Source of the DNA: a virus
Reading direction: 5' to 3' (one strand)
Virus genome (UHGV): UHGV-0211200
Length of the DNA: 45,784 nt
Part shown: positions 32,611 through 41,187 of the stretch, piece by piece
Layout: every line of letters begins with the position of its first letter
Position numbering within the stretch: the stretch's first letter is position 1
Notes under the pieces: model-generated
Told to the model about the DNA's origin: nothing
Database searches by the model: none
Seen by the model: the letters and a program-made list of their open reading frames with translations, nothing else
Program-made: the position numbers and the translations under genes

Positions 32611-32799
32611 TCACCTGATTTTTTCTGCTATTTTTTCACCTATGAAAAACGCAAGATTAAATGCGCCAAAGATTAGCATAAGAAATAATGTCAACGGCCA
32701 AAAGAACAACGGAATCAGCGAAGTCTCTCCGTTTACTTGCATAAATCCAGAAACAATAGTCCCGATTAATAAATAAATTAAAATCAATATATAAATCAT
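32611..32799 (-). CDS. small hydrophobic protein between terL and portal
   Basis: 62 aa with two hydrophobic helices. 4-nt overlap with the TerL stop. Confidence 0.3.
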   Translation of the reverse strand: MIYILILIYLLIGTIVSGFMQVNGETSLIPLFFWPLTLFLMLIFGAFNLAFFIGEKIAEKIR

Positions 32800-34049
32800 G
32801 CGCTGTTTCCTCTCCTCATTGACAGTGGGCTTGTAGCATACCGCAGAGCGTCTATCCAGTGGTTATTGTGGTCTGGATAGTCTGCAATCACTTCCCCATT
32901 GCTGTCTACTTCATGTTCATACTCTATGATTTCCTTGTATGCTCTCGGCGTTCTGGCCGGGTCTATAACGATTGTCCGGCACTGAAGCCATTCAAAGGTA
33001 TATTTCACACTACCCGGCCCAACATTGGCCTGTCTGGCAGGAAGTCCAGCATCCCTAAAGTCAACTATGCTTTCCTGTTCATCAGCGCCGCAGCGGATTT
33101 CATAATCATCATAGCCCTTTTCCTTTATATCCTCTGCCATTTGGCTGTTACGGATTTTACAGCCGCCCAACTCGTCCAACAGATAGATTGTTTCAGTGCT
33201 ATGGATGTACGCCGCCCGGATAAAGGCTTTCGGGTCAGGATACCAGCCCCAGTCTTGCCCTTGATAGATACGCTCCATGCGGCTGATTTCTTCGTCTGTT
33301 ATTGTACGCACATCCAACATATCAAAAATATTCGTTCCCAGTCCAACGGGATTGCCCATGTATTCATGTTCATATGCCCTTGGATTGGTGGCTTTCAGAT
33401 GTTCGGCGTCTGCTATAAACTGTTCTCCCAGCCATTCCTCCGGCACTGTGGTATAGTCGCTCTTGTGCCGGCAGCTGTCCTCTCTTGGCTCGTTGACGTA
33501 CACATTCGCCCAGTTGCTCCGGCTGATTGGAGGGTTGAAGGACTTGAACACCACAAATTTACTCCCGCCACGAAGGACGGACTGCTGCACTGTTCGGATT
33601 TCCTCAATCCCGGCAAACTCGTCCAATTCCTCGAACCAGAGGTATTTAAAATATCCTCGGCTCGTCTTGATAGATTTCGTTTTCTTCGCCTTGTCCAGTC
33701 CTCGGAAGATGATTTTCTGGCCAGTGGGTTTATACACATACTGCATGTGGCTAACACTGGACTCCCACAGGTCATTGGCCCCCAGTGCATCAATCGCCCA
33801 TGCAATTTGTTCAAATACAGATTCCCGTAAGGTGTTTCCTACCTTACGAAATACTGCCGAATTGCTGAAAACTCCGTCCTTTTCGTCCTGCATCATCCCC
33901 AGTATAATTTCCACGGACATGAAAGAGGACTTCGTGGAGCCGCGCCCGCCGTAGAGGTCATAATATGTATGCTTTCCGTCCAGGATATCCCAGTGAACGT
34001 CATAAAAGGAAGGGGCGATTACATCAGTCAGATTTATTATGTCACTCAT
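32796..34049 (-). CDS. terL: terminase large subunit (PBSX/XtmB-like)
   Basis: 417 aa. Walker A YGGRGSTKS near the N-terminus. ATGA overlap with terS. Confidence 0.9.
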   Translation of the reverse strand: MSDIINLTDVIAPSFYDVHWDILDGKHTYYDLYGGRGSTKSSFMSVEIILGMMQDEKDGVFSNSAVFRKVGNTLRESVFEQIAWAIDALGANDLWESSVSHMQYVYKPTGQKIIFRGLDKAKKTKSIKTSRGYFKYLWFEELDEFAGIEEIRTVQQSVLRGGSKFVVFKSFNPPISRSNWANVYVNEPREDSCRHKSDYTTVPEEWLGEQFIADAEHLKATNPRAYEHEYMGNPVGLGTNIFDMLDVRTITDEEISRMERIYQGQDWGWYPDPKAFIRAAYIHSTETIYLLDELGGCKIRNSQMAEDIKEKGYDDYEIRCGADEQESIVDFRDAGLPARQANVGPGSVKYTFEWLQCRTIVIDPARTPRAYKEIIEYEHEVDSNGEVIADYPDHNNHWIDALRYATSPLSMRRGNSA

Positions 34050-38984: not shown

Positions 38985-39761
38985 TCATCCCTCTGCCTCC
39001 TCGTCATTTCCGGTACATTGCGAACATCCCTTGCACATTTCGCATGGTTCATCCGCCCAGGCGTCCCCATATCCAATACATGGCCTTTTTTCTTCTGCCG
39101 GTTCTACTCCGCGCAGAATGCATGGCTCCGGCTTCTCGCACCGTTCAAACTCTATCACCCATACCCATGGGTTGGCATCCCATCCATATTTGGCAAGGTC
39201 AAATTTTTTGGTGGTTGAATCCCATAAATCAGAAAACATATCTTCCGCCTGGTCTTCTGCTCCACAAAATCCATCTTCTGATGTTTGCGGCTTACATCTT
39301 TCATTCAATTCCAAACATGGCTCACACCCAAAGGCTCTAACTCCTTCTTTTATCATATCTGGTACTGAAATATCCTGTAATCGCTCCACCCTCACATCCG
39401 TCACCTTCAGCCAGATACGGGCGGCCTTCTTCGGCATATGGATAGACGGCCTCCATTTTGGTTCCTGGCTGTACCCGGCAGTTTTGGCATTTCCTCCATC
39501 TGCCCTATATATGTAATGGTCACACCAATCCCCGTTCCAGGTTTCCCGGACATACAGGATATCCCCTGGATGGTATCTACACAGTTCTTCCGGCTTATAT
39601 CTATCTCCTGTCTCTGGGTCTATGTAGCATATGACCCTTCCATCCACCTCAACGTCAAACTGATTGGATATGTCGGTATCAATCTTTCTCCGTGTAACCG
39701 TCTTGCGCCCTTCCAGTATCGCCTGGACCATATCGCTGTTAAATAATATCGGTCTTACCAT
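38985..39761 (-). CDS. ASCH-like domain protein with Cys-rich C-terminal extension
   Basis: N-terminal MVRPILFNSDMVQAILEGRKTVTRR matches the ASCH/PUA-like signature (...G.KT.E.R). The C-terminus has many CxxC/CxC clusters. Confidence 0.5.
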   Translation of the reverse strand: MVRPILFNSDMVQAILEGRKTVTRRKIDTDISNQFDVEVDGRVICYIDPETGDRYKPEELCRYHPGDILYVRETWNGDWCDHYIYRADGGNAKTAGYSQEPKWRPSIHMPKKAARIWLKVTDVRVERLQDISVPDMIKEGVRAFGCEPCLELNERCKPQTSEDGFCGAEDQAEDMFSDLWDSTTKKFDLAKYGWDANPWVWVIEFERCEKPEPCILRGVEPAEEKRPCIGYGDAWADEPCEMCKGCSQCTGNDEEAEG

Positions 39762-39786: not shown

Positions 39787-40014
39787 TCAGTTAAGTAGCT
39801 CTCTAAACTCTTTTGTTGGTGTCCTTACATTCTCCCAATCCAGTTCTGCTGCGCAGCAAGGGCAGCAAACATAATCATCAGCCACACCGTATCCACACAC
39901 TGGACACCGATATTCCGGCTCCATATTTTCAATTCCAGGCCCTTCCCCCATATAAGCCACAATATCAGGCACTACAACCTTAACCAGTCTTAGTTTTCTC
40001 ATTCTTCCGTCCAT
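39787..40014 (-). CDS. small zinc-ribbon protein
   Basis: 75 aa. CPVCGYG...CCPCC. Confidence 0.35.
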   Translation of the reverse strand: MDGRMRKLRLVKVVVPDIVAYMGEGPGIENMEPEYRCPVCGYGVADDYVCCPCCAAELDWENVRTPTKEFRELLN

Positions 40015-40020
40015 CCTCCG

Positions 40021-41172
40021 CTAAATACGTGTTTTGGTTCCCAGTTCTATCTCCGCAATGGCCTTGAATACTGGGTAGAACTGTTGCGGTACTACCGCGT
40101 TTCCGAGGCACTTGATTCTGTCCACCCGGTTGGGAATCCCATGAGCCACTCTACCCACGTTGGGTTCAACTGCCCACTGCCGACTTCCGTCCGGCTCTCC
40201 TCTGCGGCTATCTGGTCGTTTAGGTTCCTGCTTCGTTCCTGGCTCTCCCACCGTTCTTTTTGTCCCGTACGATAATCTCTGGCCTGTGGTGTTGCGTACC
40301 TCATAACCATTTCCGGCAACCCTTGTTGTCTGCTGTTTGGTCCTCTCCGTTTGAAATCTTGGGCGGTCGGGGTAGGGAACAGTTTTGCAACTTGACATAA
40401 ATTCATCAAGCTTTGTCCTCCAGCTTTGTTTTTGTGCCGTATCGTCCCATTTTTCGTTATTATCGGATTCCCAATTTTCTTGTTTACTACATCTGAGGCG
40501 GTAGGGGTTGGCCACATCTTCACAGCATCTGCCAGATTCAGGCTGTGGCGGCTTCCCTCTTTCTGTTCCGATGATTTCAGGTTCCCCACAAAACTGTCCG
40601 ATGCGGTCGGCGTGGGCCACGATTGCGGTCCTGTATCGCTGGTGTGGGGCATTGACACCTGCAGCTGGTATAAGAAATGTCCGTGTGGTGTATCCTTGGC
40701 CCTCCAGGTCAGATAGCACCTTGTCGAGTGCCATATTGATGATTCCAGCAACATTTTCTCCAACAACCCAAGTGGGCCGCAGTTCCGCGATAACCCTAAC
40801 CATTTCTGGCCAGAGGTAACGGTCATCTTCCTCGCCTCGCTGCTTCCCGGCCGTGGAAAATGGCTGGCAGGGGAATCCTCCTGAAATAATGTCAACTGTC
40901 CGCAAACCTGTTCGTTCATAAAAGCTTTCTCCTGTTAATGTCCTTATGTCCCTCCAGCGTGGTACATCCGGCCAATGCCGCTCCAGTATCTTTGTGGGGT
41001 AATCAGCAAACTCGCACTGCCCCACGCTAGAAAATCCTGCCCATTCCGCTGCCAAATCCAGGCCCCCAATCCCGCTGAACAGGGACAGATGGGTGAGCCT
41101 CCGTTCCGGGGCAATGTCCTCTATCTCCATCTGACCATCACATACGTAATGGTCAAACACTTCTAATCCCAT
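40021..41172 (-). CDS. DNA (cytosine-5)-methyltransferase, alpha-like polypeptide (motifs I-VIII and X in this frame)
   Basis: LFSGIGG (motif I), GGFPCQPFS (IV), GENVAG (VI), GVNAPHQRYRTAIVAH (VIII) and C-terminal CLGNAVVPQQ (X). The ~150-aa region between VIII and X in this frame is highly charged with almost no hydrophobic residues, unlike a target-recognition domain. Confidence 0.85.
   Translation of the reverse strand: MGLEVFDHYVCDGQMEIEDIAPERRLTHLSLFSGIGGLDLAAEWAGFSSVGQCEFADYPTKILERHWPDVPRWRDIRTLTGESFYERTGLRTVDIISGGFPCQPFSTAGKQRGEEDDRYLWPEMVRVIAELRPTWVVGENVAGIINMALDKVLSDLEGQGYTTRTFLIPAAGVNAPHQRYRTAIVAHADRIGQFCGEPEIIGTERGKPPQPESGRCCEDVANPYRLRCSKQENWESDNNEKWDDTAQKQSWRTKLDEFMSSCKTVPYPDRPRFQTERTKQQTTRVAGNGYEVRNTTGQRLSYGTKRTVGEPGTKQEPKRPDSRRGEPDGSRQWAVEPNVGRVAHGIPNRVDRIKCLGNAVVPQQFYPVFKAIAEIELGTKTRI
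40092..40919 (-). CDS. nested alternate-frame ORF encoding a C5-MTase TRD/motif-IX-like polypeptide (beta-like); start uncertain
   Basis: Same strand, +1 frame, fully inside the MTase gene. Carries four (W/F/Y)(P/A)TP(T/Q)A(S/Q/R)D repeats and the C-terminal NPTWVEWLMGFPTGWTE, which matches the conserved ...RLQGFPD.. block preceding motif X. Candidate internal start at MPHTSD (about 40652) after AGGTG. Confidence 0.4.
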   Translation of the reverse strand: MNEQVCGQLTLFQEDSPASHFPRPGSSEARKMTVTSGQKWLGLSRNCGPLGLLEKMLLESSIWHSTRCYLTWRAKDTPHGHFLYQLQVSMPHTSDTGPQSWPTPTASDSFVGNLKSSEQKEGSRHSLNLADAVKMWPTPTASDVVNKKIGNPIITKNGTIRHKNKAGGQSLMNLCQVAKLFPTPTAQDFKRRGPNSRQQGLPEMVMRYATPQARDYRTGQKERWESQERSRNLNDQIAAEESRTEVGSGQLNPTWVEWLMGFPTGWTESSASETR

Positions 41173-41187
41173 GGTTTCCTTCCTCCG

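Follow-up and report, generated by a model that had tools for sequence, protein, structure and literature searches.

A phage C5-cytosine methyltransferase probably made of two chains encoded by one stretch of DNA in two reading frames

The virus genome UHGV-0211200 (45,784 nucleotides; this whole stretch is called the window below) carries a C5-cytosine methyltransferase locus in which two long open reading frames (ORFs) occupy the same DNA. The outer frame, alpha (40021..41172, minus strand, 383 aa), encodes the methyltransferase catalytic subunit with motifs I-VIII plus motif X, and the inner one, beta (40092..40919, minus strand, 275 aa), is read in the +1 frame and lies completely within alpha. 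The ORF list confirms both frames as they had been described in a first-pass annotation made from the letters alone; the strand implied there had to be corrected, as both genes are on the minus strand. Direct reading of the sequence places a Shine-Dalgarno sequence (GGAGG, 41182..41186) 9 nt upstream of the alpha ATG (41170-41172), and each of the alpha motifs listed by the first-pass annotation could be located: the AdoMet (S-adenosylmethionine)-binding motif I (FSGIGG, 41062..41079), motif IV with the catalytic cysteine (GFPCQPFS, 40855..40878; the same bases encode beta residues 14-22 in the +1 frame), motif VI (GENV, 40750..40761), motif VIII (QRYR, 40630..40641) and motif X (LGNAVVP, 40087..40107), which begins just ahead of the beta stop codon (40092-40094). 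Motif VIII is separated from motif X by a linker (aa 186-346, 40135..40617) that is predicted to be disordered; it is open but unconserved as a protein and represents the -1 shadow of the beta modules and motif IX described below.

Beta has an internal Shine-Dalgarno sequence of its own (AGGAG, 40929..40933), placed 9 nt upstream of its ATG (40917-40919) and inside the alpha codons for T-G-E-S. Its N-terminal domain (residues 1-100, 40620..40919) is overprinted on alpha motifs IV-VIII. It is followed by an array of PTP modules (residues 101-245, 40185..40619), the putative target-recognition part, with module cores at 40596-40619, 40491-40514, 40356-40379 and 40275-40298; the repeats read WPTPTASD (twice), FPTPTAQD and YATPQARD. 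The chain closes with motif IX, LNPTWVEWLMGFPTGWT (40119..40169), and then SSASETR. This block conforms to L-x-P-x-E-x-x-x-L-M/Q-G-F/Y-P, the canonical pattern of motif IX. The four repeats and the motif IX block claimed for the inner frame are indeed there. The overlap of the two genes amounts to 828 nt in the window and to 1,263 nt in a related metagenome locus (L007).

Alpha matches PF00145 in Pfam (E 5e-37, residues 28-370), TIGR00675 in NCBIfam (105.6 bits with a cut-off of 100.65) and phrog_363 in PHROGs (E 3.6e-82, residues 16-379), and it has motifs I, IV, VI, VIII and X of the C5-methyltransferases all on one polypeptide. Alignment with a single-chain enzyme, which the first-pass annotation had proposed as a check, pairs alpha residues 26-182 with residues 12-166 of M.HhaI, corresponding to motifs I-VIII. 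In the AlphaFold model, the predicted local distance difference test (pLDDT) value is 70-91 for the core and 84-89 for the C-terminal helix with motif X, and only 30-60 for residues 194-344. Foldseek matched this model to M.HhaI, M.HaeIII and DNMT1 over ~172 columns only, i.e., over the large domain. Conservation, AlphaFold, Foldseek and motif search agree that alpha has, in the stretch from motif VIII to motif X, no folded small domain, which would comprise a target-recognition domain (TRD) and motif IX. The region had been described at first as very rich in charged residues and almost free of hydrophobic ones. The first part holds for the variable region (aa 186-330; 34% charged, with the low pLDDT mentioned above), whereas the second was overstated, since 19% of its residues are hydrophobic, compared to 35% in the core. 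Note also that PDB entries 3g7u and 3lx6, prophage "putative DNA cytosine methylases" of E. coli CP-933R and Shigella flexneri, are among the structural and sequence matches of alpha.

To see how far the arrangement extends, 167 loci were compared: 80 viral and 80 genomic ones retrieved by the C-terminal signature of beta, the window itself and six found earlier. Each locus was typed by placing four query pieces (the N- and C-termini of alpha and of beta) with tblastn. The loci come from Bacillota, Proteobacteria, Chlorobiota, Planctomycetota, Spirochaetota, bacteria of the candidate phyla radiation (CPR) and others. The arrangement of the window, with beta in the +1 frame and alpha open from motif I to motif X, was found in 152/167 loci. 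Nine loci (9/167) represent a variant with an alpha/beta overlap of 310-440 nt, in which alpha stops 4-12 codons past motif VIII and the beta frame continues through motifs IX and X; in these loci an essential motif can thus be reached in the beta frame only. The remaining 6/167 are broken, misclassified or odd. The N-terminus of beta overlaps alpha motifs IV-VIII in every one of the 167 loci. In L174, the closest of the independent metagenome contigs, the gene is likewise 1152 nt long and free of indels, and another relative (L172) differs by in-frame gaps only. Nesting is present in cultured phages as well, namely in Fernvirus phages of Paenibacillus larvae, Salmonella phage SEN4, Burkholderia phage BcepC6B and a P2-like phage of E. 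coli; complete E. coli genomes gave only two partial nucleotide matches to a P2-like phage member. The linker of alpha varies in the relatives from ~50 to ~330 aa.

One of the odd loci (L066; IMGVR_UViG_3300025112_000507, 187-1955) has a compact alpha of 267 aa with a nested one-module beta, followed directly by a second, longer beta ORF (987-1955, 322 aa). The second beta overlies an alpha remnant (1061-1936) which is devoid of motifs I-IV and has a broken motif X. In this locus, one catalytic subunit may serve two alternative specificity subunits. Furthermore, a group of alpha proteins (P0131-P0140; 305-322 aa in total) is 90-94% identical to the window alpha in the catalytic core and has shorter, unrelated linkers, a mismatch which, judged from the sequences, indicates that genes almost the same elsewhere have swapped their beta module region by recombination.

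The analysis of selection on the two frames used 111 nested loci whose alpha sequences share less than 80% identity. As a synonymous measure we used, among sequence pairs sharing the alpha amino acid, the fraction that also shares the codon. This synonymous-codon identity is 0.30-0.40 upstream of the beta start, 0.46-0.71 through motifs IV-VIII and 0.35-0.45 past the beta stop, with an abrupt rise to 0.70 in the stretch of 10 codons containing the beta ATG. Taken per column, the median increases from 0.344 ahead of the overlap to 0.621 inside it (Mann-Whitney p = 2e-11). The nucleotide identity at alpha third positions behaves in the same way (0.346 before, 0.566 within the motif IV-VIII overlap and 0.302 after it). 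Indeed, single alpha codons are nearly fixed, although the family uses all synonyms elsewhere: Leu120 is CTC in 106/108 sequences (specifying beta Ser36), Leu149 is CTC in 103/103 (beta Ser65), Ala170 is GCT in 108/108 (beta Leu86), Asp116 is GAT in 97/111 (beta Met32), Asp117 is GAC in 102/104 (beta Thr33), Leu156 is TTG or CTG in 104/106 (beta Trp72) and Gly113 is GGC in 96/108 (beta Ala29). The beta residues that are invariant or nearly so under such codons are P24, G25, A29, M32, T33, S36, L57, S65, W72, L86, S89 and P91. The synonymous alternatives at the fixed positions would create no stops; therefore, selection acts on beta amino acids and not merely on the openness of the frame.

The +1 frame is also far more open than chance allows, as the first-pass annotation had argued. 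If the alpha protein is held fixed, it stays open across motifs IV-VIII in only ~0.03% of synonymous-codon resamplings; the third frame of the same stretch has 7.4 stops on average. In the real loci, the beta frame is free of stops for ~100 codons upstream of motif VIII in 165/167 cases. Within the window (42% GC), no other nested same-strand ORF comes near beta in length; the runner-up, with 133 aa, is half as long.

In the variable region, the relation of the frames is reversed. Here, the amino acid identity is 0.262 for beta, 0.152 for the alpha frame and 0.156 for the unused third frame, and the nucleotide identity at beta codon positions 1, 2 and 3 is 0.44, 0.45 and 0.32, respectively. 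Whether homologues conserve the inner frame as a protein had been named at the outset as decisive for the proposal, and they do. The linker substitutions that separate the window from a close relative (44, 17 and 16 at alpha positions 1, 2 and 3) are accordingly concentrated at the beta wobble position. The variable region of alpha is unconserved as a protein, and only the beta frame is conserved there. With the beta protein and codon usage fixed, an open linker is obtained in ~2.8% of resamplings; it is observed in 152/167 loci, with linkers of 45-281 codons. The motif IX block is the best-conserved part of beta (amino acid identity of 0.75, compared to 0.54 in the alpha frame), which makes the alpha peptide EPNVGRVAHGIP a shadow of the beta sequence NPTWVEWLMGFP. 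Taken over the whole gene pair, both frames are under purifying selection, and the locus is a case of true dual coding. The overlap is not confined to the variable region; the first ~100 residues of beta overlap motifs IV-VIII and are likewise under selection at the protein level.

The most probable start of beta is the ORF's first ATG, which is preceded by AGGAG 9 nt upstream and at which the synonymous constraint on alpha sets in. In the clade nearest to the window, an ATG is found 7 codons ahead of the invariant motif QLTLF, and 52/60 relatives with an ATG there have a Shine-Dalgarno-like GGAG 9-13 nt upstream of it, despite differences between the alpha residues encoded there (TGES, TKES and others). 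The start suggested earlier, at MPHTSD (about 40652), has to be abandoned, as this Met90 is not conserved in the family consensus and the constraint begins at the first ATG.

Beta matches phrog_1008 (E 1.1e-49, residues 5-270), a PHROG labeled "DNA methyltransferase". No match was obtained in Pfam or NCBIfam, and the beta profile found nothing among PDB sequences even at E 10. Its homologues fall into more than 6,800 clusters at 90% identity, nearly all of them 200-340 aa long and without a Pfam domain. A profile search retrieved 40,263 clusters (50% identity) at E <= 1e-3 and 23,851 at E <= 1e-10, some of which are single-chain enzymes. The relatives contain 1-7 PTP modules with a median length of ~35-40 aa; upon single-linkage clustering, 175/294 modules fell into one cluster, and no "alphabet" of modules could be defined. 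A single-chain relative is gp71 of Mycobacterium phage WillSterrel, one annotated coding sequence (CDS) whose single frame comprises motifs I-VIII, LLPTP modules (three of them), motif IX (LNPAFPEWMMGWPTGW) and motif X. In tblastn, beta residues 94-267 match gp71 in its CDS frame. Modules and motif IX together are thus the normal variable region of this methyltransferase lineage, which here sits on a chain of its own. A conceptual chimera of alpha motifs I-VIII, beta modules with motif IX and alpha motif X raised the PF00145 score from 128.4 to 136.3 bits, a gain of only 8 bits.

We therefore regard it as likely that the locus specifies, from one stretch of DNA and in two reading frames, the two polypeptides of a phage or prophage C5-cytosine methyltransferase. 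The basis for this is the purifying selection in both frames, the complementary sets of motifs, the conserved start signals of beta, the homology of beta to the TRD and motif IX that a single-chain relative has in frame and the variant with motif X in the beta frame. The step from two conserved frames to two polypeptides leans on the precedent of M.EcoHK31I, an E. coli methyltransferase whose beta chain is encoded within the alpha ORF; by analogy with it, both chains would be required and would form a heterodimer. In such an enzyme, alpha and beta would be translated from one mRNA, with beta initiated independently, close to alpha motif IV, at the internal AGGAG and ATG of the +1 frame. Alpha would be the catalytic subunit, with motifs I-VIII, a disordered spacer of ~160 residues and then motif X, and the N-terminal domain of beta (~100 residues) would dock onto it. 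The tandem (W/F/Y)PTPxAxD modules of beta (~35-45 residues each) would read the target sequence, and its motif IX would complete the small domain. The assembled enzyme would resemble M.HhaI, alpha contributing the large domain and beta the small one, and alpha motif X would be tethered by a spacer whose sole requirement is the lack of a stop codon. Methylation of the phage DNA by this enzyme could serve the evasion of host restriction. As for the origin of the second layer, we lean slightly towards the view that the N-terminal ~95 residues of beta arose by overprinting on the best-conserved portion of the catalytic core (motifs IV-VIII) and that selection then kept them in the phages of Bacillota, Proteobacteria and further phyla.

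Several observations speak against the two-chain interpretation or weaken it. As the loci were retrieved through the C-terminal motif of beta, relatives without beta are invisible to the sample. In the motif IV-VIII overlap, the amino acid identity is 0.60 for alpha, 0.467 for beta and 0.412 for the third frame, so that beta is only modestly above a shadow, and the changes between close relatives are mainly at the alpha third position, with alpha being the more constrained frame. The constraint on the N-terminal domain of beta is thus not uniform and affects particular residues. The AlphaFold model of beta alone (110 sequences) is poor, with a pLDDT of 60 and a predicted template modeling score (pTM) of 0.25; only residues 69-89 form a confident hairpin (pLDDT about 87). 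With such a model, assignment of the modules as a TRD at the level of the fold is impossible. A poor model would be expected for a subunit that acquires its fold in contact with the partner chain and with DNA, yet this proves nothing. Finally, in an hhalign comparison of beta with M.HhaI, whose C-terminal half was entered by hand, the sole match was motif IX (residues 273-290, E 0.35), a similarity that is short and not significant by itself, although suggestive.

We consider it unlikely that beta is a real protein without being a methyltransferase subunit (e.g., a regulator, an inhibitor or a separate DNA-binding protein), with alpha acting alone as a methyltransferase of low specificity. Overprinted viral genes often have accessory functions, and the lack of Pfam, NCBIfam and PDB sequence matches as well as the poor folding of beta alone would agree with such a role. 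However, beta ends with a motif IX block, its modules have homologues in the variable region that a single-chain methyltransferase encodes in frame, motif X is located on beta too in nine loci, and alpha possesses neither a small domain nor a motif IX of its own. Moreover, the nested beta of M.EcoHK31I is required for activity (PMC2836561). We can also imagine a single-chain enzyme made by programmed ribosomal frameshifting, with a +1 shift after motif VIII and a shift back for motif X, or with one +1 shift near the alpha stop in the nine variants. Single-chain relatives with the same domain order do exist, and, as the variant alphas stop so soon after motif VIII, one +1 shift would restore a canonical enzyme there. 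Nevertheless, this is very improbable: the window layout would need two shifts, and the beta frame is open and under amino acid-specific selection for ~100 codons upstream of the needed shift site. A gene expressed through frameshifting would have no start of its own and a coding signal from the shift site on, whereas here the Shine-Dalgarno sequence and ATG are conserved and the constraint begins at them. An Rfam scan of the locus was empty, slippery sites not having been searched systematically. Two metagenome proteins (P0013 and P0075) could be taken for products of frameshifting, as in both of them alpha motifs I-IV are fused to the beta frame at PCQPF(S), in the T-run CCATTTTCC. They lack, however, motifs VI, VIII and X and look like indel mutants; probably they are 1-nt indel mutants or assembly errors, although low-level slippage at CCATTTTCC may occur.

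The distribution of motifs I-VIII, TRD with motif IX, and motif X over two frames would, in one isolated sequence, be just what two indels in a canonical gene produce, and a compensated double frameshift had indeed been mentioned as an alternative at first. That the locus is an artefact of this kind, caused by compensating indels or sequencing errors, or that beta is an untranslated chance shadow, is nevertheless improbable in the extreme. The same frames are found in viral contigs and genomes of many phyla (152/167 loci), the nearest contig (L174) is identical in length and free of indels, the beta frame is stop-free upstream of motif VIII in nearly all loci instead of the ~0.03% expected, and alpha uses codons that are specific for the residues of beta. 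The comparative data thus refute sequencing errors and compensated frameshifts, and the two-polypeptide methyltransferase with its recognition modules and motif IX in a nested +1 ORF, as it had been proposed in the first-pass annotation, is supported by comparative and codon-level evidence together with the M.EcoHK31I precedent.

The neighbors of the methyltransferase genes in the window are a RusA-like resolvase, a replication-initiation-like protein and members of PHROG families of unknown function. With such phage replication and recombination genes beside it, the locus lies in the early module, or replication module, of a phage or prophage. Downstream of alpha follow a gene for a Cys-rich, zinc-ribbon-like protein (39787-40014, minus strand, 75 aa) and, likewise directly downstream, a member of phrog_874 of unknown function (38985-39761, minus strand, 258 aa). 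The second-longest nested same-strand ORF of the window (33413-33814, minus strand), located inside a gene for a 417-aa protein (32796-34049, minus strand), may be due to chance.

Gene callers forbid long same-strand overlaps, so that one of the two ORFs is kept and the other one is dropped. In metagenomes, beta is often the ORF that is kept, being left as a hypothetical protein without domains; elsewhere, alpha alone is kept and taken for a complete methyltransferase. In three metagenome contigs (L003, L006 and L007), the inner beta ORF was called and the outer methyltransferase dropped, with a "gap" of ~200 nt upstream. The loss of alpha or beta is thus systematic and varies with the pipeline, and the nested arrangement is almost never annotated. 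Outside of Fernvirus phage records, beta is named "hypothetical protein" in public databases, and a model of it is absent from both Pfam and NCBIfam.

If the overprinting origin is correct, alpha and beta would be among the longest same-strand dual-coding pairs in prokaryotic viruses, and very widespread ones. The family offers a replicated natural experiment in dual coding, with a catalytic core that doubles as a second domain, a spacer that only has to be open and a motif X that switches chains. If beta carries the recognition modules, the prediction of specificity for a large class of phage methyltransferases must use beta. In that case, beta would be an exchangeable specificity subunit, as the locus with one alpha and two betas (L066) hints. 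In practical terms, naturally split methyltransferases have served as scaffolds for targeted methylation (PMC2836561), and a large family with modular beta subunits would widen this toolbox.

A literature search for widespread nested beta genes in phage C5-methyltransferases found only papers on M.EcoHK31I and M.AquI and generic papers on overlapping genes. The closest known pair is that of the Fernvirus phages, e.g., LIKHA_51 and LIKHA_52 of Paenibacillus larvae phage Likha, which has the same nested architecture and homologous proteins, both CDSs being deposited as DNA cytosine methyltransferase. The Likha beta differs in the number of modules and is ~38% identical to that of the window. In the paper on 48 genomes, the two methyltransferase genes are listed, and the portion of its text at hand does not discuss the nesting (PMC6070908). 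WillSterrel gp71 shares the catalytic core, the tandem LLPTPxAxD modules and motifs IX and X with the window pair. In contrast to the latter, it is one chain and has no counterpart of the N-terminal ~95 residues of beta, the match starting at beta residue 94. The multispecific C5-methyltransferases of Bacillus phages (SPR, phi3T, rho11s) are phage-borne as well and have tandem recognition units in variable number in their variable region. They are, however, single polypeptides with TRDs of another sequence type and without an overlapping gene. M.AquI of Synechococcus/Agmenellum (CYCGRG) is encoded by overlapping alpha and beta genes, with motifs IX-X on beta (PMC3404938). According to this description, the nine variant loci with motifs IX and X on beta resemble it, whereas the window pair has a fully nested beta and keeps motif X (40087-40107) on alpha.

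The closest characterized parallel is M.EcoHK31I of E. coli (YGGCCR), in which beta is encoded wholly within the alpha ORF in another frame and both chains are required for activity (PMC2836561, PMC3404938). Removal of the beta initiation codons abolished its activity in vivo, and N-terminal truncation of beta weakened the association with alpha (PMC2836561). As in this enzyme, the window alpha encloses the whole of beta, which shares its strand but not its reading frame; motifs I-VIII and X belong to alpha, motif IX to beta. The two differ in that the predicted TRD of M.EcoHK31I was placed on alpha, with only motif IX on beta (PMC2836561, PMC3404938), whereas the window alpha has no TRD and the conserved modules are in beta; moreover, the window beta overlaps the catalytic motifs IV-VIII as a second conserved coding layer. 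Going by its published description, M.EcoHK31I may be a compact member of the same family, and the 267-aa alpha with its one-module beta in L066 shows that compact pairs exist. If so, and if our view of the modules is right, the target-recognition determinant of M.EcoHK31I-like enzymes would be on beta rather than on alpha as published, and the placement of the TRD in the only characterized nested enzyme would need re-examination. The kind of arrangement is thus already known from the nested beta of M.EcoHK31I and the overlap of M.AquI, and the nesting exists in databases as two Fernvirus CDSs and two PHROG families (phrog_363 and phrog_1008). The new features are the putative recognition modules on beta and the second coding layer over motifs IV-VIII; should M.EcoHK31I prove homologous throughout, the window pair would possibly be just another member of its family.

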